In this document: in pieces, positions 6,567 to 46,785 of the stretch
How positions within the stretch are numbered: the first letter of the stretch is position 1
Layout: the number at the start of each line of letters is the position of its first letter
Assembly (NCBI GenBank): GCA_964187785.1
Contig: OZ076409.1
Span: 45,882,001 to 45,942,000 of the forward strand
Length of the DNA stretch: 60,000 bases
Source: Amphiscolops sp. MND2022
Lineage: Eukaryota
Direction: 5' to 3'
Position numbers and translations under genes: made by a program
Notes under the pieces: generated by a model
What the model was told of the DNA's origin: nothing
Seen by the model: the letters and a program-made list of their open reading frames with translations, nothing else
The model's database searches: none

Positions 6567-7415
6567 TGCTTGATCACTTCACTTGACCAAACTTTACGCC
6601 ACTCTAAATTCGACGCTCAGCACTGCGGATCGTGACCAACCACTGCTTGCTTCTTATATTAAAAGGAATGTATCTTGACTTAGTAGGATCCAATGATCCC
6701 GAATTGCACTCCTTTCTTGTCTCATAACGCGTCCAACTCTCCACAAGTTGAAAGTAACTTACTTAGTCGCCCTAATTCTTTGGCGAAAAGTCGAAAAGAG
6801 GTAAAGAAATGAATTGAGAAAAGAAGTGGTCCTGAGACCCAACTTCACCATAGTGTTTCATCTCTATATAGTTAAAACCTCAATATAGTTTTCGTATAAA
6901 TATGGTTAACATCTCTACAGTAAGTATAAGTCAAAACATGATGTTTGTATAAATGACATTAAGTGAACTATTAAAGGTATTGGCTATGTAAACAAACCAG
7001 ATGCTGAGTCTTCAACATTGGATAGGTGGTCTCATAAGCATGTTTACACTATGTAAATATCATTCAATTCAACAGAGTCACATTCAAAAGTGGTCCTTTG
7101 GGCTCATAACGAAGTTTATATTTTCGGTTCAATGACCTTGAACACCACTCATGTGAGAGGTAAAAAGATGTTATAATGGGTGAATGACCTTGAAAATTAA
7201 ACGGGCAAGTTGTGTCAGGCACCGTCATATGTGTACCGAGTTTCAACTTTCTTGGGTTAATATTGTAGCGAAAACCGTTACTGAGGAGGTTTTTCAATTT
7301 TGTGATGGTCAACGTTTCTGTAATCTTTCATCAAAGTTTCATGAGTTTAAGTTCTTATTTCTCAACCACCATGTTCCAAATTGACTAGTTTGCCTGCTGA
7401 TGACTGGGGCCAACC
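6567..7415 (-). repeat. 5' LTR of BEL/Pao derivative
   Basis: The 3' half aligns with 46490-46775. It is directly followed by a PBS; the terminal GCCGTTACA is missing. Confidence 0.8.
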
Positions 7416-7419
7416 TTAC

Positions 7420-10335
7420 GGTTACAGTTATATTGAAGATTGCATCGTGGAGGTCTTCGGATAGTGGATTCAGAAGAGGTTTCTAAGAGATTATCTAAAG
7501 AGGAAGTGGTATGTTTAGAAGCGGAATTATAAGAAGGAAGACGAGGATAAATAAGAGAAAGTGTAGTAGAATTAGCGTCACTTGGGGCGTCTTTTTCACT
7601 AAAGGTGTCAGAAGATTCGAGAACAGGGGAATTCTTGAAGGGAGTGGAAGCGAATATTCAGGTACAGTATGTACACATGGTTTCGGGAATGAAAGTGAAG
7701 GATCCAATTGAGAGTGTCGACGACGACCTTTAACAGAAGTAGGAACTAGGATTGATTTACGAGGTTGAGGTTTCTTAATATTTCTTAAGAGTGCTGTGTC
7801 AAAATCCCTGAGATCAGGAACATGAGCTTGAGAGGCAGGAGGTGGAGAATGAGTTGGTGTGACATCAAAAGAAGTCAAAGGGAGTTCATTATCAGAAAGA
7901 GGAAGAGTTGAAGATTTTCGGAGTTGTTGTTAAACAGCAGTGGTTTTAAGAGCAAGTGTAGGATATTAGCACTAGTATTCAAAGAAGGAGCGATAGGGAT
8001 AGGATTTAGAGGTTCACGGTGTAAGATTAAATAAGTTATTTGAGAGGAGTTACTAGTATTAGTGGAAACTGAGGAAGAAACAGACGAAATAGAATCTGTG
8101 TAACTGGAGGAAAAAGGAACAGAAGGATCCAGGATGGAAACAGGGGAAGTTTCCTAAACAATATTAGTGAGTGTTATGAAGATGTTATATTCAATAAGTA
8201 ATTTTTCAATGAATGAGAGATTTCACAGAAGAAAACTGAAATGGTTATTAGCCCTTTTGATTAGCCGACCGTTCAATCAAAGCTCGTGAACAAAATGAGC
8301 AGAAAGTATTCAAAGAATTGGCTAATAGTTAGATTGTGAATGTCAGGTATCAGGCATAATCCTGTGTCTAGACATGTGAAATTCAACTAAAGCCTAGCAG
8401 GAAGTGTAATTGTTGGATGAACTTAAAATTAAGGAGGGAAGCTAAAAGTGGGTTTGGAGATGGGAGATGGTAATCTTCCGGTGGGAGAGGTAGAAATTTG
8501 TGTGGTGAAGGAGGCTCTCGAAAATGAGTGGGTAAGTTTTGAGAATCTGATGTAGATTCAAAAGAGAGATGGGGAGAATCAGCAACACGATTAGAATTGA
8601 GGAAAAGAGGGTGTGCTAGAGGAGGTGGAATGACGAATAGGATTTAACAGCATTTCAAAATCAGAGTTTGTGGAATCGAGAGTATTATCTGAATTGTTAT
8701 TTAAAAGAGTGGAAGGAGGGGGTTTTGATAAGTAGAAGGAGGGTGCAAAATCATTTCGTATTGTGCAATGGTTTTAGTACAAGTAGTGTTTGGATTAAAA
8801 GATTCAAAAGGGGTGTCAGATTCATTTCGAGGTAGATTAGAGAGAATATCTTGGTAGGAGTTCTTTAGGATAGTATGGCAAAATATGATTGCGATGAGTG
8901 TGGAACGTAGAGCCATTTTAGGCCATAAGTTCATAAGTAACATCGGAGAGATTTTGAACAGTTTTGTATGGGCCAAGACGGAGGGGTTTAGGTTTATTGG
9001 AGAACTTGACAGGTTTAAAGTTAGTGTGTATAACAAGTGTGTTACGAGGAGGGTTGTTTTGAATGAGTGGTTTCAAATGTGCAGTTTTGTGAATGAAATT
9101 TATTGGTTATGTGGCGATGAACTGTAGTTATTTTTCCTGATATTGCTTTCAATGGCCACAAGGAGATAGGTTTGTTGTGAAATGAATGGAAAAAGGGATT
9201 GAAATCTTGGTCACTTTTTTGTGTATGAGGTGGAGGAACGAATTACAGTATGTTGCCATAGAGTTTCAAGAGGAATCACGTAACAGATTGAGAGAGAAGG
9301 TTAATGGAGAACGAGGTTGAATATGGAAAACAATTTGATAAGGAGAAAGTGTAAATTGAGAAAAAGAGTACTATTGTGAACATAAGCGTACATTTGAGTT
9401 TGAAATGACCAATTAGTAGGAGGAATCTTGAAACATAGACGGAGGTGAGTTTCGAGATCACAATATTAGACTTCTACTAAACCATTTGTCCAAGAAGAGT
9501 ATGGAGTACGTGGAGAGTGGTTATTATTAAAGAGAAAGCAAAAACTTGTTTAATATATTCAGTACCTCGATCAGTTACGAGATTTTGAGGTGTGTCAAAT
9601 GTAGTAATCCAATGATGGAGTAGTGATTGGATAGCATTTCCGCGGAAAAATCAGCAGCAGGGTTAGTCACAACAAAACGACTCAAACCATCAATGATTAG
9701 AAAACTATAGGCGTTACCTTGTGAAGAAGGCAGGATAGGTCCGTTAGTGTTCATGGAGATTCGATAGTTAAAATGAGTGGCGTTTTTCAAAATGGTAGAG
9801 GAGGAGAAATATCATTTGGTTGAAATTGGTTGAAAAGGAAAGTGTTTGTTCGTTTCACATTCAATACAATCATGAAAGAAATTAGAAAATCATTAAGGTA
9901 AATGAGGATTATAGTAAAATTGGTTGAACGTTTTAATAGCGAATTTTGGCCATGATAAAACCTTCTTCAAATATTCGAGAGTTGAAAGTATAATATTGAA
10001 TAAAATGAGAGTTTAGGTCAAAATATAAATTTTGGAAATGTTTGTAAAAAGTATAGAGAAAAGAGGTAGTTTTAGAAATTGAAGTTGAAGTGTAAGGTTT
10101 GTAACCATGTATAAACAAACAGTGGAGAGAACAGGATCATCTTTTTGAGGTTGGAGAAGTATGGGTATAGTTGAAAAGGTAGTAAATGGAACGAATAGTT
10201 TTCCAAGAGCATTGCAATGAGCAAAAAAAGAATGGATCAAAAAATGGCAAAGACTGGGTGGAGGTCGGTTTAATAGGCGTTTGTATAATGGTGTTAGAAT
10301 AAGAAGATTCATCAGAGTTGGGATATAAAGACACC
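7420..10335 (-). pseudogene. Gypsy A: decayed integrase and long Pro/Ser-rich pol C-terminus
   Basis: Fragments QKDDPVL, GPILPSSQGNAYSFLIIDGLSRFVV and TPYSSWTNGLVEV, plus a terminal RRPPRCNLQ (RYNLR-like). Many frameshifts. Confidence 0.8.
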
Positions 10336-10663
10336 AACCAAATCACAAAGTAAAGCAAACAGCGGTCGCGAACCAACCAGAAATGGGTACTGCTTCTACT
10401 GCATCTAAGTTGGCCATTTTAGTGCAGAATGCCGAAAAACGAAACAAGAATATTTGCAGGAAAAACGGGAAAAACAACTGCCCTGAACAGTGATTCTGCA
10501 GGAAACAAGTTAAATGCAATACTTGCGGCAAACCACATAAAACGGAAGATGGTTGAAAAGGAGCCAACGCAGTCAACGATCTCAGAACGAAGCGCAACTA
10601 TCAAACAGAGCTCTAACCAGAAAACAACGTCAAACCAACGACATCAGTCCCAGCTGAAGAACC

Positions 10664-10692
10664 AAAAAACTAGAAACGCCGCGACTGCGTTT
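10664..10692 (+). promoter_or_regulatory. Candidate -1 ribosomal frameshift site at the gag/pol junction
   Basis: A AAA AAC heptamer, then TAG, then hairpin AAACGC-cgcgact-GCGTTT. The -1 frame stays open for about 50 codons. Confidence 0.55.
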
Positions 10693-13600
10693 TGGGGAAA
10701 CACTAAACGCGAGGGCATACACCATAGAAGATCCCCACCGAATACACTCAGTCCCAAATTGCAACGAAATCTCAACAGACGACTGGCAGCGACGCCGAAA
10801 CGTCGCAGCAATATAGAATTATCACGCCAAACATAAATAACAAGAATGCTACCCGGAATGGATGAAGATCAGTATATGATGACCAAACGACCACTGCCAG
10901 ACTCAAATCAGGAAGGCACCTACTTTAACGACAAAGATTGTAGATGCGATCCTTGGGACAAACGAGATATCTATGACCAGTCCACCCTCATCTTCAAACT
11001 CCACTCCTACACACCTCCAGCAACTCGACAGGACAATACTCCTAAGGAGCAGACCATACCCCCACCGCCCAAGAAAGATGACACCGGCTCCACAAATGAC
11101 ACTAAAACAATACTCCGATTTCACCTAATTCCATCAAGGAGTACATAGAAGAAAAAGGTTGCGATTTCTACCCACCACTCCACTCCATGATTCCACTGAA
11201 AAAACGACGAAGAATGCTGCACCTACCACTCAATTTTGAAGAAATAACAATGGACCGGTTAATAGACTCGGGCGCTTTCATCAATGCCATATCATGATCA
11301 TATAACACTATGATAAAACTCAATTGCGATAACCTGTCATCAAAGAGTACCCAAAACTGCTGTTCAAAATCGCATGCTCTAACGCCCAATTGGAACAATC
11401 TATAACCAGAGCAGTCATACACTTCAACATTGGGTCGTAAACAATCACAGACACGTTCGTTGTACTATCCAAAATCTCCTTCCTGAGAAGAGGTCTGAAC
11501 TTCTTTAGGAACAACCAAGCCTTTCTGGACATAGCCAATGAACAATCAGTTTCCCGCACGTCAGAATAACGATGGCAATGACCAACGAAATGAAAAATTG
11601 CAACCCAAAACTGCTTCAAAAACAAGCTGAGAGGAATCAAACAAAACCGCCACAGCAAATAACAACTGTCTCAGCAATAGTCATCACCACCAGTGCAAAT
11701 CACATCACCGGTGCATTGGAGTCACTACGCCGATTCGACTAAACAACTAACAAAACTGTCGAACCAGCATTGGCAGCACACAACAACAGAACAAACATTA
11801 AGAGGGCCAAAAAACATTCTCATTTACTATAAAGAATCAAACCAAATTAGCGGAACTCCAAATCCTCAAACTGGAGAAAACTAAACAAATACGGCCCATG
11901 GAGGGTGCAGCACTAATATTATTGGAAGATACGAATGACACGCACATGTACGTCAATAAACTCATAAAAGCAAAAGAATGCAACCAAAAAGACAAAAACT
12001 TTTGTTTCCCGACCCGAAAACCCAGGAAACGAAGACCAACACACGCCAATTTAACATCGGATACTCAACGAAGTACGAAAGTTCAAGAAAAAATAACTAG
12101 AACCGAAAAAGACGAAGAGTCGAGAGAGGAAATTCTCGACAAACTTAGGTTGGACGGATCACAATTATAATGCAAAAACAATGAACAACTACAACAAACC
12201 ATAGTTGAAAACAATGAAATTTTTGCCCGATAACAATTAAACATCGGAATCAACAATAGTTTCAAAGTAAATTTAACGCCCGAAGACGAACGCCCAGTGA
12301 AGACGCAAAGCTTCCCGATCTATTTTTGAAAAAAGACTTAACAGTCGAATTAGATCTGATTCAACGTTCTCACATAATACCAACGTGGCGATTTTACAAT
12401 TATGTCAGCTCAATTGTCGCACAACGCAAACCAAACGGCAAATTGTGCATACTTGTCGATCTGCGGAAAGTCAAGGCGCTAATATCAGATGATTATAACA
12501 TCAAAAATCATCCAGATAGCACCATATTAGATTCAGCGCAACACCTAGCTGCTGAAAAACTCTTTTGCAAATTAGATTGTTCGCAAGCCTACCAATGTCT
12601 ACAATTGACCTACAAAGATCACTTGAATTGTTTCAATTTCGCAAACAGAACCTTCGCAAACAAACGATTGGCACAAGGCTTGAGCAGACACTTATCAGCT
12701 TGTTCTAACTTCAAGCGAGAGTATTTGGACCAAGTAATCACAGCAAATCAATGCGCTCAATGTGTCGACGATTTTGGAAAAGCTGTAAATACCGTCATAC
12801 AATTGATGCGCAACGGTTTTTGAGTGCACCTGGAGAACTGGCTCGATATTCGCCAAAAAAATTGCCGTTTTGGTGTTACGGAAGTAGAATTTTTAAGCAG
12901 AACAACCACATTTTAAGGAGTAGCCCCCCTGGATGACAAACTCAAGAAATGTCTGTCAAATGTGCGATTTACCAAATCAAAAATCCATTTCAAAGATGTA
13001 TTGGTCTTGTCAACAATTATCGCAACTACATCCCGCATCTGTCCCAAAAAGTACTTGCAATTTACGAGCGTTTGAGAGCAGACAAACAGAAAGGGAAAAA
13101 ACCAAAAAACCGCTGGACAATTACAAAGCGATCATTGCAGCGCTAGCGGTAGCGCACGCATTGACCCTCAAACAGCCAATCACATAACGTCAATACGTCC
13201 TAATGGCAGACGCCAGCTTTTGCGCCACGGGATATGCGTAATGACGAGAATGACCAGAAAAAACTCAACTCAAAAAAAGAAAACTTTCGCCTCAGTCGCA
13301 TTTGGTTCAAAAGTTATTTTCCCCAGCGCAATTGAAATTGTCCGATTATTGCAAATAATTTCTAGCAATCTACCATGCTTTTTTAAAATACAGCCATATT
13401 CAGTGGAAGATGACGCTACCGACATTAGTTATGACTAAAAATAGGTCAGTGACCCGCTTCTTCCAAACGAAAGCAATACTACCACACTATGGAACACGAG
13501 AAACTACGTCCTGCAACTCAATTTATACTCACATAATGCACGTAGCAGATGCGCAAAACACTGCAGCTGATTTTTTATCGAGAAATAAATGAAATCCAAA

Positions 13601-14521
13601 AGAGCCAGTTGAACTCAAGCTAAGAGAAGACATAACAATTTAACCAATACAAGTCAATTTACAATCCGCTGAGGGAGCAGATGAGGATCAACCAATTTTT
13701 TTCTCGCAGAAGAAACAATGCAAACAAGAGAGGATATTCTGTCACAAAAAGAGAACAAACCACACAAAATGCGCGTGACGAAGAGCCGTCGAAGATCAAA
13801 AAGACAATAAAAGAAACAGCGCCATTACTCAATAACAAAGTCACAACTACGTTCGGAGCCATAAAAGAAAACGCCCTCATCAGAGTCTAACAAGATGCTT
13901 CAAACAGAGTCCAGACTTCCATTATTACACGCAGACAGACTAATTGTCGAAGACGGACTACTTATGCGCAAATACTACAAAAAATGGGGACAAATCACAC
14001 ATCACCAAATACCAGTCCTCGAAAATATATGAAAGAAATACTACGAGTATTACACGGGAAACTGGGAAAACACCCGACATAACTAAAATATTCCAAGATT
14101 GCTTCTCATAATAGTTTTGTTCTGTATTACCGAAAACAAACACGGGCTGCAGCGATTGCATCAAATACAAACGGATAGGCAACCGGCAAACACAACCGAA
14201 AATGCTCAGCAACACTGAACACGCCTTGGGATCGAAAGACATCCTTAAAAATCACATATTATTGAACTTACCAAATTCTACAGGCTACCAAGTTTTTGTC
14301 ACCACGGTAGACGTTTTTTCATGCTACCCATTTGCGTATCCTACCCAAAATATGAGCGCAAAGACAATCGATTGATGCATCATCGATGTCACGACGAGAC
14401 CTGAATAGACACTCATCCTGTTAGATAAAGTCTCGCAAATCCGATCAGTAATTGGGGCAGAGATTGCGGAAGTCATGGACATACAACTGAGTAATGCGTC
14501 CATCAAACACGCAGAACGAAT

Positions 14522-15368
14522 CTAGGCATCAGCAGGCAAAGAAAGTAAATTTGGAACAAGCTTGTTTGGACAAAAACTATGAAATCTTAAAAACTCAGAT
14601 GAAGTTTTCAAGAAAAGTCGATTGTCAGTACTTGTACAAAACTGCCTCCTCAAACGGGTTTTCTCAAAATCTGTTAACCAGAGAGTCATTAAACTTGTCA
14701 CATATATGCAAGTACCCAACACAAACGCTCCGGCAAAGTTTCAACTTCATTCAACTATCATAACCCCTTTTCCGCCACTTATGTGTGGTATTCAAGGTCA
14801 CTTGAGTCAAAATGTAAACGTTATTATTCACTCATAAGACCTCGTTAGAATGTAACTCCGTTGCAATTGATAACAGTTACATTGTGTAAACTTGCTTTTG
14901 AGACAACCTCATAGTGATACCAAAATCACTATGTCGTTTGTTTACATAGTCAATAACGTTAATTTTTATCTTTAAATGTCATATTTTTTACCACACATTT
15001 CGATTTTTATTTACTGTAGAATTGTAAATCAGATATACACCACAACCAGGAAGAGGTTTTAACGACTGAATAGCTGTAGTCAAGCTGCGGTTTAGGACCA
15101 CATATATTCTCAATTTTATTCTTCAACTCTTTTCGACTGTTCGCCAGAGTCTTCGGCGACTTAGTTAGTTACTTTCAACTTGTAGAGAGTTGGACGTGTT
15201 TAGAAACAAGGAAGAAGTGCAATTCGGGATCACTGGATTCCACTACGTCAGGATACAGTCATTTTATTCTACGAAACAAGCAGTGTTCGATAACGATATG
15301 CAGTACTGAGCACCGAATTCAGGGCGACGTAAAGTTTGGTCAAGTGAAGGGATCAAGCAGCTGTTTCA
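14522..15368 (+). repeat. Solo BEL/Pao LTR inserted in Gypsy B integrase
   Basis: Ends GGATCAAGCAGCTGTTTCA like the other LTRs and has no PBS. The flanks rejoin as integrase KHA...IGLLERTHA. Confidence 0.85.
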
Positions 15369-16385
15369 ATCGGACTACTGGAAAGAACACACGCTAGAAT
15401 CAGAACATCGCTCAAAAACTCCATAGGTTAACGACGATTGGTGTGGCGCAAGTATAATCAAATAGCGGTAATGAACTACAACACGACCTACCATGAAATG
15501 TTAGGTTGCGAACTTTCAACCGTCTTTCACGGACGAATACCTTATAATGTACCCGACCTAAAATTAGGTATCAAGCCAAAGTAGAAAACTACGCCAAATT
15601 GAACAACTACAAAAACGAATTGACGAAGTGCGCGCGTCAGCAAAGGACAACATAATGCTGTCTTACCTTAAAGACAAGAAATAGAACCGAAAAGCGTCTG
15701 CAGCGCTACTTGAAATTTAACGTTTATTATTACATTCTTGTCCCAAAAGCCAGGAACCAATCGACAAAGTTTGCGTTCCAAGACTGCATTTGGACAGGAC
15801 CTTACATTGTGATAAAAATGCCGTCAAACAAAAATTACACAGTCAAAAAAATGGGACCAGATAGACGCCAACGTTACATCGAATAAAATTCGTCCCTATG
15901 CTCCAGATCAGCTTTGGCAGCAAAACCCAGTTTCACTGAGGTTATTGACAACGTCGAACCGTCGTCGCCGGACTTTTCCAATCTTATTCCCTATTTGGGG
16001 GATAATTCTTATTTACGACGTCCTTCACTCGTTGAAAGTCCAAGTAAACCCTCAAAGTCACCGCCTGTCAGATATCACCGTTGTCAGATATAATCTGAGA
16101 AAAGTAGCAATATATACCCTTCGACTTTATTCTAAACCTAATGCTAGTCCTAATTATCACGTCGACATTATAAAAAAAGGATTAATCAATAGTCCACACC
16201 AAACCGTTCTGTCTTTTGTACGGCTCCTCTACTGCGACTTTTTTTTATCTTGGAGCCTCGTTCAATTTTGCAAGACCTAAAAGTAGTACACTGCACGAAT
16301 ACTGCAAAAAGTAATGACAGCAAAAAATTTACAAGACAACAAACAAAAAATTAATCAAATGGCCACAACAACTATCCAATTACAA

Positions 16386-17430
16386 CTATTCCTTTGAAAC
16401 GGAAGCAGGACTTTCCACAGACCTCTTCGAGGTTCTCTTTGACGTGTTCTCCACTTCTAAACGCGCCAGAAGATTCGATTGCATTTCCACCCCATTTCGT
16501 CGCACTGAACTAGATTCCTATTACAAGTTAGTGGACGACTCGGCATCGCCCGCGAGTTACAACAATCGATCACGTCTATTGGCATTGTGATTCCGGTTGT
16601 AAAACTCCCTATTCTTACAACCCAAGTGCAAGTGCACTCAAATAAGTCACAATACTGACCCACCAAAGCAACAACCGACCACTGCGTACATACTCCTACA
16701 GATCGAGACACGAAGATGACTTAAACCCGCCAGCGTCTTCAGTGCCATCATAAACACCCTCCATGTTTCGTGAAAAACGAAAATTGCCTGTAAACGGGAG
16801 CAGAAACACAACTCCTCCATGCACTCCTCCGACACAGGATGTTATCACAAATGATGGAGCGCAACAATCATTCAGACCTGTATTGACATCAGGATATTCC
16901 ATAGCGGGTTTTTGCTCCACCATCCAGCACAGCTTGAACACACGACACAGATTCATCCGCCACACAAAACCACAATCACCAAGCAGATAGCAAACAATTT
17001 CACTGATACCCTCCGAGCTGCGGCCACTTCTTCAATCACGAGCAGGAACGTCAACAAACATAGTGACAAATTCCTCGACGGCAGCTTCTGACTCGACAGA
17101 AGACAAAGATCCACTTTTCCCCAACAACCTCACAAGTTCACTGAACGAATCAAAAACATGCTCGTCATCGCCTTCTACCAGCAGCTCCGGAGAAAAGCAG
17201 TAGATAGCCCGCACGACCTCAGCAGAAATCGTGTGATGTGACAGAATCACGTCAATCAGATGTTCGAGAAACCCCCGACAACGATTGCGGGACTCTCGGA
17301 TTTCACAAGTTTCGGCTTCGTGAGAGTATTCATTAGACAAATTGATAGACCTCAAATTAATAATGAAAACCATAGTCAGTCCGTTTCGCTGCTTCTTGGA
17401 AGAACACCCATCGAAACAAATAAGCCTCAA
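16386..17430 (-). pseudogene. Antisense accessory ORF-A homolog (copy 1), unknown function
   Basis: ORFs 17032-17430 and 16696-16965 are one frame split by a stop. LLGKSGSLSSVESEAAVEEF, VITSCVGGV and DL*EYV align with LLAEMGRISLVEQGQMELGF, DVMSCICAV and TLWDDV of 41465-42250. Confidence 0.6.
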
Positions 17431-17477
17431 AACTGCTTGTACCCTACATTAACTACAAACTAATGAAGAGTACTCAC

Positions 17478-18180
17478 GCATATCCAGTATTTGCAACAGG
17501 GGATCAAGACGCAGTTAATTCGTATTCTCGGTGTAAATGAGCTAGTCTGTACCAGGCATCTGCAAAAATTAATCCAAACACTGAAAATTAAGGAAGTAGT
17601 TTGTTACCCTACGAATAACAAACACATTACACTCAAAAGAAGACCCAAACGGAAACTGGACACTCCTCACTAACCAAGAGAAACACAACAAAAGAGATTG
17701 CCCTAACAGATTCACTTCGTTCAGATAACAAATACAAAAAGTCGACGACAACCCTACGCAACTCTGGGAAGACCACTCGTGCAGCAATGACGCAACGACA
17801 GCGATAGGCAAAGGTTTTCACCCAGGGCTCCTGAAGAGAAATTCGCAGGCGTAACATCAAGTAGTCCACCATCGTTGTCACTTCCAGAAGATCAGAGACA
17901 TTTTGTTGTGTTTGTCGGGAGCACTGCAGAAACACGTCCACAGTATTTACCAGACGCACCACAAACGAATGTCTCTAAGCACCTGCAAGAGCGAAGGATT
18001 ATCACCCGGGATTGCAAAGAGGCAACTGACAAGAAACAACACTGTCTTTGACCCAGGAGAGCGACAACAATTCGACTTGCGGCACACGCTGTCCAGATTA
18101 CTCAACGCGCGCACAGATCTCCTGCAAATCGTGCTCGTCCCAGGCATGACATGGAACGAAGAAGGACCCATTGGAGACCC
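17478..18180 (-). pseudogene. Antisense accessory ORF-B homolog (copy 1) plus a small exon at 17559-17478
   Basis: GPSSFHVMPG, LFLVSCLFAIPGDNP and YLMLRLRISLQEPWV match GFSNFHLAVG, TWLINMWCCMHGEPVP and HLQKRLKRFVRDPFV of 42706-43224. The small exon is bounded by TTTTGCAG and GTGAGT. Confidence 0.5.
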
Positions 18181-18385
18181 ATTAGAAATTTTCGGAAAAA
18201 AAAAAGAAAAGAAAAGCCAAAAGAGGCAAAAGAGGGTTTGAATGGGTTCAAAAACAAATACTTAGTACTTTTATGAAAGTGCACTGTAAATAAGAAGTTG
18301 TACAAAAAGAACGAGGTCTGTGACCAAAGAAATTAAGCCACTGCAATAGTCGGCCACTTTTCACAAGAAAAGCGCTGACTAAACA
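18180..18385 (-). mobile_element. HINE-like 5' fragment
   Basis: AGTCGGCC...GCGCTGACT stem-loop and context like 2215-2277. Confidence 0.5.
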
Positions 18386-20228
18386 AACTAAATGCAACTT
18401 TTTTTAAGTTCATTTCGCTTTCAAAAAACACCACATCATTACTCAGATTCGAAGCCCAAATTTTCTAACCTCTGATGAATCATAGAAATTTACTCTGTTT
18501 CAGGTAATAAGAACCCAGTTACGTCACTTTCTACATATACTATCCGAAAACACTGATCGTATAATGAAATTTCAAAACGTGGACAGAATTGGCGACGAGC
18601 ATGGTTCGAGTCCGCAGGTCCAATCACAAGACAATCAAGGCCTGTTTTGAAGTGCCCGTTTTGTCTTTCAAATTTTGACCGCTTCATTGATGATAACATG
18701 GTAAACCAAAAATGAACATTGGAAATCTGCATGTGTAGAATAATATTGAGACACTTCCATGTCAAAGCCTTGTATTGAATTGGCCGAAGCGAGTGGCATA
18801 CCAGTCTATATATTGAGTTTCTTTGGGAAAGCGATAGAATTAATTGCCCAATTTACACTCATCTGCGATTATGCATGGGCATTTAAAGCCATCGCTATTG
18901 CAAGGAAACTCAATGCGTAGCTTGAGCTGCTTCGGAAATTAATAGGCACAAGTTTGGAATGCAAAATCAAAGGGCATTTTTGGCCATACATTCATACATG
19001 TCCATCGATTTTCGAATCGCACAACGAGTAAAATCTGCATTTTCGTTGCCGGTTACCCCGCTAGAAACTCCCGAACGTAATTTTCAGAAGATCGGAAGAT
19101 TATAAACTTTTCATGAAACTTTACACAAACGATAATTTTAAACGGATTCCCCATCTTCTTACTTTAGTCGTGAAGTTTCATCTTTGTTATCCTTGTTTTA
19201 AACTGGGTTCCGTTTCACATTTGTATACGATTGCAGTATTAGGGGCGTAAAATGAATTCATCATTACATACTAATCTGACGCATAGAACTTGTTGCCGCA
19301 GTTTGTGAAAGCTAAATTTATGCTGAAATGCGGCAGCAACAGGTGAATTCCAATTTTACATCGTTATGCCTATCGAGGTGTGATGTATATACGCCATTAT
19401 GCGTTTTTGTATAAACTGACTATGCGGTCCTTTACGTTCTGATGCTCGACGATTATATGTCATCATGCTTTTTCGTATGATATGACATTGCGGTACTATA
19501 AATTTTGATGTTCTTACATTTTTACCTCCTTGAACGCTTTTGAAATTAACAACTATGCTTTAGCGTCTAACGAACAAGCGTCACTACGCGAATCTCGTAG
19601 TGACGTTTGTACGACAGTTTACGTTCTTCAGGGTTTTTCCAATCCAAGTATTTTGCAGTTTAGTTGTCATGTAGAGCAAATTTATATACTATAAATAGGA
19701 ATACTACATTTTCACGAACAAACAAGCCTGTCATGTTCATCATTGTTTCAGTTTTGTAGTTGGTGTAGCTGATATCGTTGATCAGTTGTTGAAAAACAAT
19801 GCTTGTTGAAGACAGTTGCCTTCTCTTAAAGCGCCTCGAACGCCTTGTAATTATTAACTTCGATAAAAGTTTCACTTCTATTGTTTGACTGGAAGTGACC
19901 TCACAACAAATTCGAAGACTTCCGTGCCCTAAACCTACTTTCGCTTGAACAGAAAAAATAATAGGATGAAAAGAAAAACCAGTATTCCAAATCGAATTAC
20001 CCTTAAACCCTGAGAACGAGAATGATCACCCAGTCCTTAAATGAATTATCTTTTTCAGCAATTCTTGAACTGGAAACAACATTCCAAAGTAATTTGTGAT
20101 AGATTTACCAGTTTTAAATGTCTAGTTTTAAAAGACTACCTAAGTCATTTGGTTTAGGCCGCTTGCTTGTTTAAGCATCTTTTTTGTTCACCTTTGCTTG
20201 CCACTTAGCCAAAGGCAGGGACCCAACT

Positions 20229-20493
20229 CATTACGATACATATCCCGCAAACTTGGTAAGTGATCACTTGGTGTAAAAAGTATTTTGGGTGAATTAGTAA
20301 TTCAGTGAAATTTTGTCAAGGACCGTAGTAATCCATTAGTGTAGTGGTGCAGGAAAGTGTAATATGAATTGTTAAAGTGGAATTTCGCTAATTGCGTAAT
20401 GTGTAGTAGTTCACAACATTAACTCACTGTGATTGGTTATTGATGCTAGTCACAAGATCTGGGAACTTGCTTGCAGGGATATGTATCGCAATG
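20229..20493. repeat. About 265-bp unit with terminal inverted repeats (MITE or short LTR)
   Basis: CATTACGATACATATCCCGCAA versus the reverse complement of the right end, CATTGCGATACATATCCCTGCAA. No TSD seen. Confidence 0.55.
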
Positions 20494-20549
20494 CTTCCGA
20501 AATTCTCATCTTGTTAACGTAGGGCGAAGTCCTGATATAGTTTTTGATT

Positions 20550-22000
20550 TTCTTTCGTTGTTGTAAACTTATAGTTGTGAGTCCCGCATTGAGTATTCTG
20601 ACTTCTATCAGTTGGCCGGTTGATAAAAGATACCCTACAGATTCGAAATACCGAGCTCTGTGATGAAACGAAAATCATGAGTTGCAAAAATGATTTTTGG
20701 AAAAACAAACAACAGTGCGTTCTTTAATACAGTCTTTTGCTCCTTGGTTCAATTTTGATGGTAGTGTTGAGTTGGGTCAGTTATTCATCAAGAACGTGTC
20801 TTTCAAACCATTTCTACAGATAGTTATGTTTCAAGGTTGATTTAGACTGGATTGTAATGAGCATAATTGCTTTTTTAGTTTGGTGGCGGGGTTTGCAAGA
20901 AAGTTATGTACTTTTTCGAGAAATCGTGTTTTGGATTGGGGTTTCTTTGCCTTCGGTAGTTTCTATTGATTTATTGCCAAAGTATGAGTCCGGAATGATT
21001 TAAGCGGGCTGTTTACTCTCCGGCAGGTTGTTAGGTTCCGCTACACTTTTGGGGGATAATATTGTAGGTGCCGCTATTGGTTGTTGGAAGTTGGTAAATT
21101 ATCAGATCAGAGGGTCGTCTGCCTTGCCAGCGCGTACAAATTGTCGTTAAGAATTACTACTTCGTTGTCTGGCTGGAAATTCTTCTGTTGATTCTGTGTT
21201 ATCAGGCAAGCGGTTCCCGCTGGGGCACGGCTCCAGGCGAATGCTCTGAAGTTTTTTGGATGAAACGAGTCTGCAATGCACGAATTCCCTATTGTTCGGG
21301 AGAGTGTTAGCCACGACATTTGGTCTATTCGACAACAACTCCTTAAATCACAATTCCGACCCTTGGTTGTTGGCTTTGGGATGTAGATCATTGCAAAACT
21401 CGTTTACTTCCAAAGGATGAGCAGAAGTATGCTTGTGGTAATACTGTTTGTATTTTATGTAGAGCTGTAGAATGCTCATACTCACCGTCTAACGGGTTTG
21501 TCGAGTTTTCTGCAGTGAATACTCCCATGATGCTCAAACTGGGCTTGACCTGCGGGACTGTCGGACATCAAACTTTAGGTCCAAGACAGTATAGTATATT
21601 CGACCATTAAATACTCTACTTTGTTCCAATCACAACGCAGTGTGGTATTTAGTATTGTAGCTCAGAGTTGCAATAGGCAACATTTGGTCCCAGATGGTTA
21701 GCACTTCTCCAGTTGATATTTTCAATGTTTCTTTCAAAGATCCTTGGCAGCGGTCAAGTATCCTGATAGTTTGGGAGCGCTTCACCATGGGGCGCTGAAA
21801 GTTCAACACTCGTGCTGTATTGGCCATGTCTTCAGACTTTATTTGATTGCCTTTGTCGGTGATGATAGTGGTTGATAAATAAGCTTGTCTTGTCGTAATA
21901 TCTAGCAACACTCTGGTCACTGTCTCTGTATCTATTCAAGCTACATTGTTTGTGAATGAGTATCGTTAAAACACATCCATGGCGGTGACTATTCGGTTAC
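20550..22000 (-). pseudogene. Gypsy C: integrase core and C-terminus
   Basis: IVTAMDVF; TTRQAYLSTTIITDKGNQ...SQTIRILDR...SYNTKYH (ORF 21630-21920). Confidence 0.85.
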
Positions 22001-23443: not shown

Positions 23444-26400
23444 AGGGCGCCAGTTTCCTTACTGGTCTTCTGAATTTTCCATCTTCCGTTTTCACGAGCG
23501 CTGACCTCACTCGCCCATTGCATCCATGATAGACTTTCAACGTTTTCATTCATCTTGCAGTGTGCTCTTTCCATTTTCACATCATTCATCTAAACTAAAG
23601 GCTTAATTTCCACTTGTCTAACATCTCTGTTCCATTTAGATCTCTCATTCCACTGATGTAAATGTTCTCTATCCTGTCGGTTTCAGATCTATAACTCTAA
23701 ATACTCGTCTCAGATCTGTATATCGCTGAGCGTCAAGAATGAATGAGTTGCCACAAAAAGTGATTGAGAGGAAATGTTTTTATATCTTCAGGATCATCAA
23801 CACATCAATTGTCAGTGTTCTGTTTCCCACTATTGCCAACAAAGCACTCGTGCAGCTTCTAACCATTCGCTCCCAAACGCCTCCGAAAAGCAGCTCACCT
23901 GGGGTTGAACTTCCATTTCATCAGCTATTCATCCAAGGACTGCTCAATGTCCGATTGGCTCCAAGCTGCTATTCACTCTCGAGTTTTTCTGGCTGCGCCC
24001 ACAATGTGCGTTCCCTTATCACCTAAAATCATATTTGAATTTCTTCTTCGTGCGTTGAATCTCGTATACGCAGTGTCTGCTTCCAGACTGGTCTTGACTT
24101 CATCATGCACAGCTCTTGTTTACGAACATGTGAGAAGATAATACTAGCGTTTCATTTATTTCCTCAAAAATCTCACTTCGAATAGTCCAAATTAGAGTAC
24201 TCATGTATTAGCGAAAAGCTCTTTCTTCCAATCTAATTTTAGGCAGGTATCCATGGAACTTCGACCTCCCCGACATTGTTCGTTTCCGCTCTCAATACAC
24301 TTCAACTCCACAGTTCTAAGAGCATTTTGAGTCCATTTGTCCATTGCTGCAAAATACTGCGAACTTACACTGTTCATCCGTGATTGAGAATTTCCTGCGC
24401 ATCCTCAATTGACTTTTTCACTAATGATTGCTTCGCAGAAAGCAAGATGGGATGAGTATTCGCACGAACATGACGAAGTTGTCATCTTAAAGGCAAGAGG
24501 TGTTGATCGTCTATAAATGACGATAGTTTGATGATGTATTTCGATGCCGCCATAGGTTCACGTGCGACCAATGCTTGAAAAGTTGCACAAAGGGTATCTA
24601 TCTGGCTCTTCAGCAGTAGCAATCAGATCAATTTCTGCAATTCGTCTGTCATTGACACTCTCCTTTGACTTTTGATCGAAACCGAAGGCAGTAAGCGAAT
24701 ATTCGCGACGATCTTATGAAAGAACTGAAGTTCACCCATTCTACGTCCATTTTTTCCGCCACGATTTCAGAGACTTTTTCTGTGTTTTCTGTTTTCTGTT
24801 GAAACAACTGTGGTGAGGTTTGTGACCAAGCATCTTCTTCCTTTCGAATGCCGGCCCGGTGACTCACACATTCCTCTCCAGTTCATAACCAGTTTTTCCC
24901 CCTGTTCAAAAATCGGCCAGATTTAAGGTTCTTTCGACATGTCTCCACTGATCAAGGGTTGAGCTATCCAGGATTTCAGCGACTCTGTTTGCCACAAGCA
25001 CCGATTGTTTTTTGTCAGCTCCATGAAACCATTTCATAACAGTTGTTGACGCTGTCCAAAAAGCATTTGTTGACTTTCAATGTCGCGTTCGTCCACGTAA
25101 AAATGTTTCAATTGAGTTCCATACATAACTGCTTGTTGCTTTATTCGTGGTATTGACTGTTGCTTCATTGGCGGTGCTCTGTATTTTCTCACTACATAGG
25201 CGATCTCGGAAACAAGCTACTATGCACATGGAGTCGAAGAGAGCATCGGTAAAAATGTGCAAGTCCACCACTTGGGCATTATCCGATAGATACTTTCTTT
25301 TGATATGAGTCAACTTCGATGCCTAATCCTTGAAAGTTAACTTTCGTCCATCGATTACCCATGCGTTTTCCAAATTACGTTGAGCAACCGTCTCATACTC
25401 ACTGTGAAAGAGGAAGCCAACCTCAACGGGTCAAACACAGAGGATACTTGCTATTGAGTGAACTTGGCATCTAGTTTTTTACCCACACGTGGTCAGATCT
25501 CAAGACTATTTGACTTCGCTTTCCATCGAATGCTTGGAAATAAAGGTGCCAAGTGTTCAGCTTCGAATGTCTTGCTTGGTGTTGATCTATCTTTCTTAGG
25601 TATTTATTCCAGTACTTTCTTGGAGTTGCAAATTATTTCGTAATTTAAAAACCACCAATCGCTAAAACTTTTCGCAAGCTTTTGTACTTCCATTGCTTCT
25701 TCATCTGAAGCTACTGACTTCACAAAATGCTCCATTTAGAAATTGCTTTTGACCAACTTTGCGACCATTCCTTTGTCATTTCGGCAGTCCAGTCCGACTT
25801 GTTGCAAAGCAAAGTTGACACCTGTTGGCGAACTCTAAGCTCCAAAAATGTGCCTTTCATCTCCATACATAAATACAGGTTTAGTGTTGCTTTCGTTTAA
25901 CAGAAATCGTAGTAATTGGCAGTATGACGGTAGGACCTTCACATGCAGAAACTTCTCTTTAGCGTCTCTTGTCAGTGCAATTTGGTTCTCCCTGGTTCTG
26001 AAGATACTTCTGATGAGCGTTTGACAAATGTCTAAGCCAGCCATCAAAGTATCGTGGAAAGAAACGCCGAACTTTGAAGCAGCGTTACATACTCGTCTCA
26101 CATTGTCCATCTTGTTCGAGATCGGCACAGGAAGATGCGGAGTGTACAACTGAAAGTCTGATTTTGTGTTTTCAAGCTCTTTCTCATCCAGAATTCTTAC
26201 AATACCCTTTTTTTCACATCACTTGCCTTTTCGTTTTTCCAATGTAGACCGACCTCATATCTATCGCAGGTGAACTTTGTGGTTGCCTTGAGCATTTCAA
26301 GGTCTCTCTCATCTTTCTTGGATCTTCCGGATACGCTGAGCATCCATCCTAAGTTAGTTCGAAATCCCAAGTCTTGGAGTTCTAGAATTTCTTATATTCT

Positions 26401-29398
26401 GTTGGTCAATGCAAGAGATAACTGTCTTGGCCCATGATATCTTTTACCTCTCTCATGCTGATGGTTAAGTCTTTCAAAACCTACATGTGAGGATAAGCTT
26501 CCTTCAACTCCTTGGCAACTCAATTTTTACGTTGGGATGACTGTAGCAAATGATGTTTTCATCAACGTTTTAGTCTTAATCACCAATTTTGACTCGAATT
26601 CTTTGGCTCCTGATATCTGACGTTCCATGAATCCCTTCGACATTCAATTTAAAATCAACTGACGACCCCGTCAAGCTTAGATTTTTCAGCAAAATTGTGT
26701 CTTGCTTACAATTTACAGACTTGCTCTAGAGCCACGCAAAGCGAACGTCTCCAGTGTTTTGTTTACATTCTCTATCGTTATTGGAATGACTGCAAGCACT
26801 CCAATGCTTCTCATTAAGAACAGATTAGAGAGGTTGTATCAGCATTTTGATTTTGTTCCGCATCCTTGTATGGTCGGTGTAGAAATCTTTGATGAGGTTT
26901 TTCACAACCAATGACGTTGCAGAGACTTCCAGAGCAACTTCTTGTCTGATGTGCGTCTGACAAATATTTGACGCACAGTCTCAGTTCTTTCTCCTTTTGT
27001 CCTCTTTCTTTGACGTTCATCTTCTTGATTTCTCACACTTCAATGTTGAACAATTACCATCTTTCAGCACACACCCTCGATGGGATGGTTTTTTGATAAG
27101 GCTTTCCCAGTGTTTGTTGCCGATGTTGCAAACAGGCAGCCTTTGGCTTTTTGTTTTGGCTCGACTTCGCTCGATCAGCATTCGGGATTAAATTGACGAA
27201 CAATTCAACTAGGAAATTTGCTATATCGTTGCGAGTCCAGGTTGATACAGGTTCATTTGTTCGACATAAGTGAGCTACTTCGTTTTCATGACTAGTGTTA
27301 CCTTCCTTGTAGCACTGGCCAGAACTCCGTCCTAGATTTCTTTCCCGTAGTTGGGAGTAGATCTCCACGAATGGCGTCAAAACAATCACACAACTCGACA
27401 CTCTTCGCGCATACTTGATCAATGCAACTCCGTTATAAAATTTCGTAGGTGGGAAGAAACAAATTTGCTTCAACGCAGTACCACTTCAGGTTTCCCAAAG
27501 TAACAACTAGCACGATCCATAAGATATCTCAGCAGTGTTTTCCAATCAAGCAACCGCCTCTTTTGCTTTGCCCGTTACCATGGTTTTCAAGTCGTTCATC
27601 TTCAAATTGTCGTCCATATTTGCTGCGTAGATGGCTGCTTGGATTATCTGAGACCTTTTTGATCATTCCAACGGATCAGCGGAAAATTCTAACAACTTAG
27701 GTTTGGCAAACTAGTTCTGATGTATTAGTCCTCTCTTACTTTGAGGCAAAGTTCGGCCCTCGACTTGACAAATACTAGCTCTGCGTGCTCGCGAACTGTG
27801 GTGATTCAAATGCATCACTCACGTTGCCTCCTTTTAGAGGGCAGTTAACAATTGCGGCCTGCACGGTTTCGATGTGGCGAGTTTCACTTCTGGTTGTATT
27901 GTTGGTCTTTGACAGCCAGCAACGCGGTCAGTCTCTCTTCTGTCCCTTCTGTTTTTTCACACAGCGGCTTCTGTGGACATGGTCGTTTTACCTGAGAATT
28001 TCAAGTCCCTTTCTTTCGCAGAGCATTGTTCTCCAAGTGTTGATCGTACTGCAAACACCTGTTTTGACTTTGATGTTTGCGGGTGTACTGAAGTAATGTA
28101 AATGGAATGAACCACGTTTTAACCTGCAATTGTTTCCTCTATCCACACAGTGACTTTTGTCACAATGACTGGCGACCCGAGCGACGAGATACTTCGCAAG
28201 CTAGAACTGCAACTACTCGAACTTTTCGCCATTTTTGTTTCCTTTTCAGCCATTCTGCTTTTGCGGCCCAGCTCCTCTTCTACTTCAGCTGTTTGTTTTT
28301 GTTTTGCTTCACGTTCCGCGTTGTTCAGACGGGTGTGCAGTTATTCTTGTTTCCTCAAAGCTTTGAGATCCAAATGCAAAACTTAGACCGCACTTGATGT
28401 TTCTGATATTCTAGGTTTTTTGCTTTTAGTTTTTTGACCTTGCGAATGTATGCTCAATTCCTCTGTTAGCATTGCAATGATCTAGCTTCAATTGTTGACT
28501 CTTGGCCGCCACTCGGGTTGTGAACATCGTGATCTTTTCTCTCGTCGTCTAACTCCAGCTCCTTTTGTTGTGAGGTACCACTTTTATGGGTTCTATCTGC
28601 TGCGGAGTTTGCACTAACTTGTGCTAGTCTTCGTTCAGTGTCTTAAGAATTCGCAAACTGGCTCCCTCATCTCTTGACTTTAGGAAAGCATCAATTTTCC
28701 TTGTGATGTCAAACATTTCTTCAATAGCAGGTTTCTTTTCCTGAAAATACAAATAGCTTTGTATTTCCTCTTTATCGTGCAGTAATTGCATCAGTATTTT
28801 CACAATCCGAATGCTAGAGTTTTGTTGCTGTAACTAATCTAATTGGCTCCGCATCGCTTGGTTCACGGCTGGCACCATTTAGGGTTGGTACTTGAGTTTA
28901 ACTGCATTTTCGAGAGAGAGCCCTAATGAGTCCTTCTGACCTTTTAATGCCCTAGTCGAACTCCCATACTATTCTTGCAAGAATCTTGCAGAAATGGTAC
29001 ATATCAGACACTATCTGCAAGAATCTTTCAAGAATCTTGGATTTCAGACAAACCTGTCAGATTCTTGCAGATCAGACATTTCTTGCAGATTCAGACGTTT
29101 CTTGCAAAATTCTTGCAGGTCAAGACATTTCTTGCAAAATTCTTGGACGGATCTTGCGAGACAATGTCTGAAACTTGAAAGACATTCCGCAAAAAATTTC
29201 TTGAATGTACGGGACACGTCAAAGCTATTTTTTCAGTTTCAAACCAAGAATATGTTCGAATTGAATGTAAATGTCTCGTATATGTAGTCGCGCGGACTTA
29301 AATGTGACAGAGAATTTTGAACCAAGCAAGAATTTTGAACCAAGAAACAAGCCATCTTGGAAGGCGTTATTATTAGTAATAGTTGTCATGTAAACGAA

Positions 29399-30524: not shown

Positions 30525-32255
30525 CACAGACTTAACTGTGACTGAAGATGTTGAAATATGATTTGTTTATTTTAGAACTACTGCTTTTAGGAGCTGTTCG
30601 TTTGCCACGATGGTGACCTAGGTAGGACCTAGCTAGGACAGTCGCTTGGGCCGTGTCATAACTTGCGAGGATCTTGATGAAGGAACTACTCAAGTGTACA
30701 TGTACAGTGAGCTGAAACATACGTCAGTGCATCCAGAAAAATACAGGTGTAAACAATTTCTGCTACTGCTAGCTATACAACAGGTGCAGCTCAGAAGGTA
30801 GTCTTATTCTCATGAAGACGAAAGCAGCAGACTACCTCAAGTGTGATTCGTCGAAGTTTGGAGATTCGGTCCACTTGACAGCAACAACAAACTTGAATCA
30901 CATATGCCGAACGAACGCTTAATCTTTGAATACGTGTACATATATATATTTATCTTCATCTATATTTGTTTTGCTGATGCTGTAAAAATCTTTCATTTGA
31001 AAATTGTTACACTCTTTTTTTTAATTTACTTTCGAGAATCAAGCATTTCTTTCAAGTTACTCTGAAGGTTCAGGCATTTTAATCCAAGTTACTTCCAAGA
31101 TCAGGCATTTTCTTCCAAGATACTACCAAGATCAGACTTTTTCTTCCAAGTTACTTCCAAGATCAGGCAATTTCTTCCAATTTACTTCCAAGATCAGATA
31201 TTTTTTGCAAGATCTTGCAAGACCAGACATTTTCTTTCAAGATCTTGCAAGACCAGACACTTTCTTGCAAGATCTTCCAAGATACCTGCAAGAATAATGC
31301 ATTGTCTTCCAAGATCTTGGAAGTGAAATCTGACAGATTCTTGCAGAAAATGTATGGAGGTTCGACTTATTCAATTCAACAAAAAACTATCAAAATATTG
31401 GATCAAACAAAAGAAAGATCTTATTATATTACAACTAATTCAATCGTTGTTCCCCACTATGGTGATGATAAACTATGTGTCTTATCTCCCCGGACTTAAA
31501 TGTACATGTGACCGAAGTTGTTGAAAAATGATATGTTCATTTTAGAACTGTCAGTTTTGAGAGCTGCACATTTAAATTGCCACGATACAAAATTGCTAAT
31601 GATGCCACGATGCAAAATTGCCAATGATGCCACGATGGTGATCTAGGACAGCCGCCTGAGCCGTGCCCTAACTTGCGACGATCTTGATGAAGGAGCTACT
31701 CAAGTGTACAAGTACAGTGAGATGAAACATACGTCAGTGCATGCAAAAAACAGAAAATGTACAGGTGTAAACAATTTCTGCTACTGCTATATAATAGGTG
31801 CAGCCCAGAAGGTAGTTTTGTTCTCATGAAGACGCAAGCAGTAGACTACCTCCAGAGTAATTTGCCAATTTTGGACATTTGACAGCAACAAACTTGAGTC
31901 ACGTATATATGGCGAACAAACGGTTAGGCTGTAATCTTTGAATACATGTACGTTTTGATCTTTATCTTCAACTATATAAACATAGTTTTGCTGTAAAAGT
32001 CTTTCAATTGGAAAATTTCAAACTCTTTTTCCAATTCATTTTGAAATTCAGGCACTTTTTCCCAAGTTACTCTCAAGAATCAGGCAATTTCTTCCAAGAT
32101 ATTTCCAAAATTAGGGATTTTCTTCCAAGTTACTTCCATAATTCACACATTTATTGCAGGATCTTGCAAGACCAGATATTTTCTTCCAAGATCTTCCAAG
32201 ATACCTACAAGAATAATTCATTGTCTTCCAAGATCTGACAGAAATTCGACAGGGG
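30525..32255 (+). repeat. Tandem duplication of the right ~800 bp of the TIR element (30525-31367 and 31490-32255)
   Basis: Shared blocks such as GATCTTGATGAAGGA(A/G)CTACTCAAGTGTACA and GGTGTAAACAATTTCTGCTACTGCTA. Both units end in TTCGAC. Confidence 0.85.
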
Positions 32256-38900: not shown

Positions 38901-39037
38901 CGTCTAGAAACAATCAAAGTAGGTACAGGTTACGCGCGAATCCTACACCGAAAACATATCCAGACTTCCTCATTCATGAAATTACCACAGCCCGAAAAGC
39001 CTTGAGAAAGACAAACAACGTAAATGTGACGATTTGA
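35953..39037 (+). pseudogene. Gypsy D: pol from RT core to end (RT, RNase H, INT), 5'-truncated
   Basis: CAQYVDDIGI; KCDGSEHAAGYVL...YAKEFLA...VMTDNKAL; EIDIVGPLP...AVDFFSRY...LTDKGTAF; MAHNTTYH; terminal SRYRLRANP. Confidence 0.93.
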
Positions 39038-41464: not shown

Positions 41465-42392
41465 TCATTTTCCAATCTCGGGACTGGCAGTCCGCTCCCC
41501 GGTAACATTGTAGCCAAGACTGGCATACAATTGGAAACGATAATCTTCCCCAGCCACGATGCCGACGTCATCCCACAACGTGTCCTCTGTAATCTCTGCT
41601 AAGTCAACGAGCCTCCTGTGCGACTCCATCACTTCTTCTAACAGAGGCTCACTGACACTTCCGTAGCTTCGCACATGATTAGCAGACAAATAACCAGAGA
41701 TTACAGCACATATACAGCTCATGACATCGCTCGACCGGTGCCCGATTCCTTCCCATGTAGCATTGGAAGTGTCCTGCACTCCCCCTCCCAGACAGAAGAC
41801 AAATTGTAGCAGGCTCTGCGCTCCACGACTGGAGCAGTAACGCAACAGATCAACAGCTGAACAGTCGGCAGTCGCCCCAGCTGGCCTAGGTTCGCGCCGG
41901 AAAGCAGTTGTATATTCCAGGAATCCGAGCTCCATTTGACCCTGCTCGACTAAACTGATCCGCCCCATTTCCGCAAGTAAGCCAGTAAAATTGTGAATTT
42001 CCGCCAAAAGATCAGCTTCCGCAACACAAACCAGACTGGAGACACTTCGGACGAAGGCAAGATCGTCGCGAATCCCTGGTAGCAATAATACATTCTTGAC
42101 GACAGACAATAAGAAACTCGGCACCCGCGACACATCCTCATCATAGACCGTCACATCTTCTGTCAAATTATGATCAGTGCTGAAACTCGCGATAAGGGCT
42201 TGTTGTTCAATCTCTGACAGGACACAACTGTCCAATCCACGAACAGCCACCGACGGATGTCCAGGGCAGTGGGCAGGCTCTCTTCGTCAACCAGTATGGT
42301 CAGCAAGCTCTTCACAAAGGAGGCACTCTCGATCGCCCAGTAACAAATCCGCAATGATGAGGACCCGAAGCTCCTTTCGGACGACGTCACTA
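41465..42392 (-). CDS. Antisense accessory ORF-A (copy 2), unknown helical protein, ~308 codons, one in-frame stop
   Basis: Acceptor TTTTCATTTCAG at 42393. The frame reads SDVVRKELRV...RECLLCEELADHTG*RREPAHCPGHPS into the 261-aa ORF 41465-42250. Homolog at 16386-17430. Confidence 0.65.
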
Positions 42393-42414
42393 CTGAAATG
42401 AAAACCACACCAAC

Positions 42415-42601
42415 ACTATATACTATAAATAATCAGACTGATTGGGATCCCGACTTCCACCCTCAAAGTCAGATCCAGCGCATCTACTGGCCCGTTTCCT
42501 GCAGCAAATCGAAGCAGACACAGTACGTCCGTCCAATTGGCCCCTAATTCGTCGCACACATCAGCAAGAGTCCACACATAGACTTCCCCGGATAAAATCG
42601 C
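42415..42601 (-). CDS. Putative small exon of antisense cassette
   Basis: Poly-T plus TTTAG acceptor at 42602, then an open frame AILSGEVYVWTLADVCDELGANWTDVLCLLRF...; GC-rich between AT-rich spacers. Confidence 0.4.
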
Positions 42602-46783: not shown

Positions 46784-46785
46784 TT

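Follow-up and report, generated by a model that had tools for sequence, protein, structure and literature searches.

The locus and its two Gypsy copies

Two different Gypsy elements in the window, the whole stretch of 60,000 nucleotides that was analysed, are followed by reading frames on the opposite strand; the question is what these frames are, whether they are related to each other and why they lie where they do. Both Gypsy copies are decayed and lie on the plus strand (B, pol 10664-16157; A, pol 35956-39037), with minus-strand frames downstream of each pol. The first-pass annotation had described the frames as two diverged copies of one antisense cassette, each with an ORF-A and an ORF-B. 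In the list below, 16386-18148 is assigned to a family B copy and 41465-43951 to family A.

10334-10670, plus strand: decayed gag 3' end, Gypsy copy B (tblastn with intact family B gag, 47-55% identity)
10664-16157, plus strand: pol of Gypsy copy B (PR-RT-RH-IN), colinear, with many stops and frameshifts (Pfam domains of relatives)
14523-15359, no strand assigned: later insertion that interrupts the copy B integrase (gap in the integrase alignment; repeats D3, D5, D8 at 70-87%)
16386-17413, minus strand: last exon (ORF-B) of antisense gene copy B (42-50% identity to the intact family B exon; profile 180 bits)
17478-17559, minus strand: 82-nt exon of copy B, with AG acceptor and GT donor (same exon in 40/40 loci of families B and D)
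17702-18148, minus strand: remnant of exon A (ORF-A) of copy B (39% identity over 157 aa, E 2e-25; profile 108 bits)
35956-39037, plus strand: pol of Gypsy copy A (RT end, RH, IN), 5'-truncated (~85% DNA identity to young relatives)
41465-42354, minus strand: last exon of antisense gene copy A, broken near 42235-42290 (73-80% identity to the intact family A exon)
42418-42601, minus strand: copy A small exon, which measures 196 nt in intact relatives; damage affects its end and the next intron
42742-43227, minus strand: exon A of copy A, 162 codons, with AG and GT ends (77% identity to an intact relative)
43415-43951, minus strand: frameshifted copy A exon with the zinc finger, C-x2-C-x16-H-x5-H (in an intact relative Pfam zf-BED gives E 0.0016)
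44593-45297, minus strand: upstream exon region of copy A, low-complexity and Ser/Pro/Ala-rich (same frame in intact family A copies)

The region 16386-18148 is a dead, decayed fossil of a spliced antisense gene that lies between pol and the 3' LTR. As annotated, pol ends a few hundred bp before the frames (decayed end at ~16157, ~230 bp ahead), gene order and orientation are those of the cassette at 41465-43227, and the frames are genuine remnants of coding sequence: the 137-aa frame at 17035-17445 matches 150/150 scored genome candidates. In DNA, the pol of copy B shares ~70-74% identity with the closest relatives sampled, and the antisense gene of this copy ~70%. Stops interrupt the last exon (17359, 17335, 17332, 17034, 16698; frameshift near 17310-17340), the 82-nt exon (17544 and 17517) and the exon A remnant (18100, 18004, 18001, 17977), which is without its first ~40 codons. 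Copy B is 5'-truncated at ~18148, and the zinc-finger exon, the upstream exons and the 3' LTR are missing.

Structure of the antisense gene

What had been taken for two ORFs proved to be exons of one multi-exon gene with an N-terminal zinc finger, in which at least four spliceosomal introns are predicted. Splice signals stand at fixed positions in the sampled loci, and intron sequence and length vary. The small exon proposed at 17559-17478 was placed exactly: 82 nt between AG and GT, with an open frame, in 40/40 family B and D loci; a 196-nt counterpart is found in 17/19 family A loci. The donor GT after the zinc-finger exon is present in 53/59 loci. An open product is predicted in 38/59 loci, with a four-exon core of ~725-760 aa; the 21 loci without one were left out of the spliced-product set. 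Low-complexity exons lie further upstream, where 1 to 222 exon chains are possible per element.

P0202, a natural single ORF of 890 aa, follows all four exons colinearly (profile positions 5-744, 384 bits) and thereby gives independent support for the predicted junctions; it is either a transcript or an intronless copy. P0181, P0183, P0202 and P0233 have no intron at the zinc-finger exon junction and read straight across it, and are either transcripts or evidence of intron loss in some lineages; most of the 54 library relatives that reach this junction turn into intron-like sequence. In a retrotransposon the genomic RNA is the strand opposite to antisense introns, so that such introns are not spliced out in replication and survive it.

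Carrier elements and families in the genome

The carriers are Ty3/Gypsy LTR retrotransposons. In intact relatives Pfam finds gag followed by pol in the order PR-RT-RH-IN (RVT_1, RT_RNaseH, rve and Integrase_H2C2 on an intact relative of the copy B pol); window copy B is colinear with these and has no LTRs. The order of the full element is LTR, gag, pol, antisense gene, LTR. Four full elements have LTR pairs 99.2-99.9% identical and 5-bp target duplications, from which it follows that the families moved recently; TG...CA ends are present in 4/4, and the primer-binding site is common to families A and B. In both families the gag frame starts within the 5' LTR of 2.2-2.5 kb and crosses the primer-binding site (L062:8292-9854; L080:5284-6825).

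Genome searches returned 859 candidates for the family A frame, with a match in all 142 that were scored, and 3371 for the 137-aa frame of family B, with a match in the best 150, all scored; many of the latter lie in open frames of 400-490 aa. An opposite-strand integrase lies downstream in 40/40 sampled A and B hits (every seventh hit, one substituted) and in 19/20 hand-picked loci of family D; the best 30 pol-end hits carry the cassette in 30/30. All samples were drawn from the best-scoring 150 hits and thus favour intact copies. Within this scope the genome-wide co-occurrence that the first-pass annotation had proposed as a check was found (59/60 sampled cassettes adjoin an integrase on the opposite strand), and its claim that the cassette is more than chance adjacency to a host gene held. 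Tandem cassette/pol-end copies were seen at a spacing of 3.6 kb on C8 (C8:14544514, C8:14548072; L005, L006) and of ~13.8 kb on C149 (L215, L218).

Family D, the third family, was revealed by a genome search with a metagenome contig; the metagenome scan gave three related contigs, one of which shares the exon layout (26-33% identity). In a protein set with clusters at 50% identity, 750 relatives were retrieved by a zinc-finger exon profile; every one of the 150 listed matches the cassette, and none of the 10 looked up has a name.

Family B elements further hold a conserved sense-strand ORF of ~246 aa that runs into the 3' LTR (L079:4974-5711, minus strand; L064, L067, L077); it is acidic and Ser-rich, 50-56% identical between types, gave no Pfam hit, and was seen neither in family A nor in the window. 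It stands head-to-head with the antisense gene, divergent and ~400-470 bp apart, and a bidirectional promoter between the two is possible.

Homology of the family A and family B genes

The frames of the two window copies had been matched by eye in several colinear motifs. This homology stands through intact relatives and has no significant counterpart in a direct comparison of the window copies: tblastn (BLOSUM62, BLOSUM45) and tblastx of one against the other gave nothing significant, and the family A profile reached only 3.1 bits (E 0.13) on the window B region. The by-eye match was therefore not verifiable from the window alone; the lack of DNA similarity that had been noted is correct (best blastn E 0.57).

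Profiles from intact copies gave a different result, and the alignment with shuffling statistics that had been called for was significant for spliced-product profiles. For the zinc-finger exon, cross-scores of A against B were 21-33 bits (best of 1000 shuffles, 10.1); for the rest of the protein, in predicted spliced products with family D added, they were 10-40 bits (500 shuffles, at most 3.1; reversed, at most 0.3). By hhalign of A against B, exon A alone (E 0.34) and the last exon alone (E 0.085) were marginal; globally, the joined region was weak (E 0.012) and the full length gave E 3.8e-10. P0202 bridges the families (A at E 4.5e-12, B at E 2e-83). Two intron positions and phases coincide between A and B in the alignment, and the intron that separates exon A from the small exon lies ~46 codons out of register. 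By these profile comparisons the antisense genes of families A and B are homologous. That the two window regions are unrelated, a chance adjacency or an artefact of the eye, would agree with the null result of the direct comparison; contradicted as it is by the profiles, the bridging protein, the intron positions and the co-occurrence with Gypsy, it has a negligible chance of being true.

Selection and exchange of the cassette

The exons of the antisense gene are under purifying selection: dN/dS was 0.02-0.37 in all unsaturated pairs of different types, copies with stops or below 75% coverage being excluded from alignments and from dN/dS. Across families, the distances of pol and cassette go together (Spearman 0.83, 32 copies), and A, B and D group alike in both trees, from which 6/38 loci without intact RT/IN were left out. 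Within families A, B and D the correlation is 0.16, 0.34 and 0.06, and AU tests reject a shared tree both ways in each (p <=0.007). The module is thus old and clade-wide, vertical between families and exchanged against pol within them. The ancient, vertically inherited accessory module of the first-pass annotation is upheld in its age and, between families only, in its vertical descent, and the comparison of cassette and pol trees divides in the same manner, with agreement between the three families and conflict inside all of them.

The exchange is sharply bounded. Comparison in 500-bp bins puts three elements of family A at 94-100% identity in LTR, gag, pol and spacers; over the gene they are 46-80% identical, with the borders at the antisense gene; a fourth element is more diverged throughout. 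In 15 family A pairs the DNA of pol differs by <3% and the cassette protein by >20%. At least four synonymously saturated cassette types occur in family A on backbones with RT pS of 0.01-0.27; the backbones of family B are themselves diverse (RT pS up to 0.7). Of the properties found here, the most surprising is that old gene types are exchanged, within such sharp bounds, on a uniform backbone.

Neutral history could produce cassette diversity, if backbones were homogenised by recent sweeps together with recombination and if divergence itself blocked recombination within the cassette. Synonymous saturation between types, purifying selection inside them and the diverse backbones of family B agree with this; it has to contend, however, with the four or more saturated types on the family A backbones at RT pS 0.01-0.27, and with the same pattern seen again in B and D, and we consider it rather unlikely.

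Origin of the protein

The N-terminal finger reads C-x2-C-x16-H-x5-H, with D, G, D and R invariant nearby; its C and H residues are invariant or nearly so across families. Pfam zf-BED gave at best E 0.0016 (18.8 bits, below the cut-off of 20.6) and was found in 4/21 members. In comparison with the Ac-type hATs of this genome the finger was the top-scoring segment (z 8.6). When the profile, with the finger excluded, was aligned with gaps to 46 natural hAT transposases, its score was reached by 1/340 block shuffles, in one of several tests tried. Controls were reached by 76/109, 37/111 and 6/123 shuffles, the last for an unrelated BEL pol, so that the null is loose. In the alignment to the 46, hAT C279 and H282 fall on mostly-Cys and mostly-His columns, at different spacing. 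The hAT D1, D2 and E606 columns hold no conserved catalytic residue (E/V/A/S/T/K, R/Q/E/L/V/S/C/N and S/K/D/N/T/G/E/V at the DDE-aligned positions), in an alignment that is weak.

Other comparisons with hAT proteins were null or marginal. Without the finger, the score of the Ac-type profile was reached by 61/390 shuffles; hhalign against the hAT alignment gave E 0.12 for exon A and E 0.048 for exon B (in the Dimer_Tnp_hAT register); cassette HMMs on 144 proteins from hAT searches did no better than shuffles. Pfam gave no hit to the C-terminal Dimer_Tnp_hAT (PF05699), only weak zf-BED and no hAT family on single exons, and a transposase domain in 0 of 31 library relatives. Sequence searches of the PDB reached E 0.079 at best (ZBED2 finger, E 0.84), and the Atlas gave no usable hit. 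Word-based searches for longer homologues with the exon A and zinc-finger alignments, which are weak as evidence, found none, and a DUF4371 search of the genome matched nothing anywhere, its controls likewise.

Two AlphaFold models are of low confidence (mean pLDDT 51 and 48). The topology predicted at this low confidence for exon A, helix-strand-strand-strand-helix, would fit the start of an RNase H fold; for the exon B model Hermes ranked third (Z 5.2, rmsd 4.1, 93 aligned), level with helical bundles that are unrelated. No clear match came from Foldseek or VIA, and the exon A list contained no hAT.

From this modest sequence evidence we think it fairly probable that the antisense protein originated from a hAT transposase and is catalytically dead. 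A gene that is real and selected and of another origin, either a captured host zinc-finger gene or some other domain, seems doubtful to us. It would explain why Pfam hAT families, PDB sequences, the Atlas and Foldseek gave no hit, why the 150 listed of 750 relatives match only the cassette and why the 31 scanned with Pfam have no transposase domain; the BED-like N-terminal finger, the length, the order of strands and helices and the colinear Cys/His match nevertheless fit the architecture of hAT transposases.

An env-like ORF3 was also considered and rejected: the gene is antisense in all sampled copies, and no strong hydrophobic segment occurs in 9 products (highest 19-residue hydropathy 1.4-1.9, for the four-exon core only).

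Comparison with known systems

The closest published kind is that of the antisense ORFs flanked by pol and the 3' LTR in plant Ty3/Gypsy elements: Retand (TRP28, Transposase_28, PF04195), maize Grande gene23 and rice RIRE2 (PMC11963269, PMC7264820). For such extra antisense genes of LTR retrotransposons, origin and function are given as unknown (PMC7264820). The present gene falls under the structural definition of aORF-3R (antisense, flanked by pol and the 3' LTR), and like the Retand-type ORFs it is conserved and near-universal in copies of its family; in both, a nuclear DNA-binding regulatory role is proposed and a transposase-like label is given. It shares the structural plan of the known antisense ORFs and is set apart by introns, finger and exchange. 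At least four spliceosomal introns are predicted in it, whereas the word intron is absent from the main text of PMC11963269; unlike the Retand type it has a BED-like finger and is exchanged between near-identical backbones. Transposase_28 (PF04195) of Retand TRP28 is absent from all Pfam scans made here (E up to 0.1-10), and tandem arrays of the Retand kind were not seen in the elements examined. The Retand type has plant hosts, whereas the present host is likely an animal, given the BEL/Pao elements in the window, which are not known outside animals.

Host genes domesticated from hAT transposases include the ZBED family and DAYSLEEPER. With hAT transposases themselves (Hermes, Ac; PRKRIR/ZMYM1-like) the present protein shares an N-terminal BED-like C2H2 finger, a similar length and a weak colinear match that includes a Cys/His motif; it differs in having neither a conserved DDE nor a significant family hit, and in being carried by a retrotransposon rather than by the host or an element with TIRs.

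Sequence-specific regulators encoded by transposons are also known: TnpA of Spm, reported to be transposase-derived (bioRxiv 10.64898/2026.08.24.746577), and VANC of VANDAL (PMC5735166). By description they resemble the present gene as accessory proteins diversified between related elements, with short motifs repeated in non-coding regions. They differ in that DNA transposons regulate themselves there, whereas in the present case a class II protein would serve a class I element, and in that the motifs found here do not vary with the type of protein. In the literature that was searched, Repbase and most subscription papers lying outside it, no report was found of an LTR element carrying an antisense hAT-derived gene.

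Possible origin and function

The chances seem evenly balanced for the combined reading preferred here, namely that the window holds a dead, truncated copy of a gene reassorted against pol by Gypsy families A, B and D, whose protein would likely be a dead hAT-type transposase serving as a nuclear DNA-binding helper. Of this, the position and exon boundaries of the gene, the purifying selection on it, the homology across families and the exchange of cassettes are shown by the results above. Under this reading an ancestral Gypsy would have received a hAT DNA transposon in reverse orientation, and the DDE residues of the latter would have been lost, a step that we think fairly probable. The antisense introns would persist through replication, lying on the strand opposite to the genomic RNA; a promoter of its own near the 3' LTR would drive the gene, whose spliced transcript would encode a protein of >750 aa. 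The zinc finger might, with a chance a little short of even, bind short repeated motifs of the element's own LTRs and spacers, and promote transcription or shield the element from silencing. By template switching in the conserved flanks, old cassette types would pass from one backbone to another, and balancing selection in some form would keep many of them.

Candidate motifs are present. GATGAA occurs 87 times in one family A element (19 expected), and TGACGT/ACGTCA 20-37 times in three family B elements (7-8 expected). Family-specific hexamers cluster in LTRs and spacers; the enrichment may reflect sites for host transcription factors, TGACGT being CRE-like. In family A, LTRs and spacers keep 94-99% identity while the types differ, so that the putative targets are unchanged and self-binding leaves the divergence of types unexplained. 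With this non-coding DNA nearly constant across protein types, a role as host antagonist or a neutral history would fit equally well.

As an antagonist, the same gene would act against a host defence protein, as decoy or inhibitor, and its types would be kept by frequency-dependent selection against host alleles. That many old types share a near-uniform backbone and change sharply at the gene, that the C-terminal exon is the least conserved part, and that putative DNA targets do not co-vary with type is what such a role would lead one to expect; yet no pair has dN/dS >1, the residues of the zinc finger are invariant or nearly so in all families, and no host partner was identified, and we hold this role to be improbable. 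We can propose only tentatively, and with more doubt than belief, the fullest form of the preferred reading: that a Gypsy clade domesticated a hAT transposase, whose dead form it retains in a spliced antisense gene as a sequence-specific regulator or anti-silencing factor, and that many ancient allelic types of it are shuffled among near-identical backbones under balancing selection as a hypervariable counter-defence locus.

If the hAT origin is true, one class of mobile element would have brought the other's enzyme under its control. Young copies number in the hundreds, the introns are conserved, the zinc finger can be recognised, and natural variants exist whose differences lie almost wholly in this gene, so that origin and function can be tested directly.

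Other elements in the window

A young BEL/Pao element lies at 45886-54301, upstream of cassette A (LTR copies 96-98% alike; frames with stops; DUF1759, RT, Peptidase_A17 and integrase domains), followed by a gap of 200 N at 54302-54501. Its LTR at 45886-46788 is resembled by the insertion in the copy B integrase (14523-15359) and by an inverted piece at 6567-7077; both are probably solo-LTR remnants. A third, more distant Gypsy (pol 29-38% identity) lies on the minus strand at 34002-35837 and 21177-21995, its parts separated by a BEL fossil (23825-26513) and its 3' side abutting the truncated end of cassette B; beside it, at 18200-21200, deep profiles gave no cassette match. The minus strand of 7500-10340 has a strong G skew and pol-like frames of another element, and abuts the gag end of Gypsy B. 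Two blocks of 31-nt repeats occur at 31015-32236.
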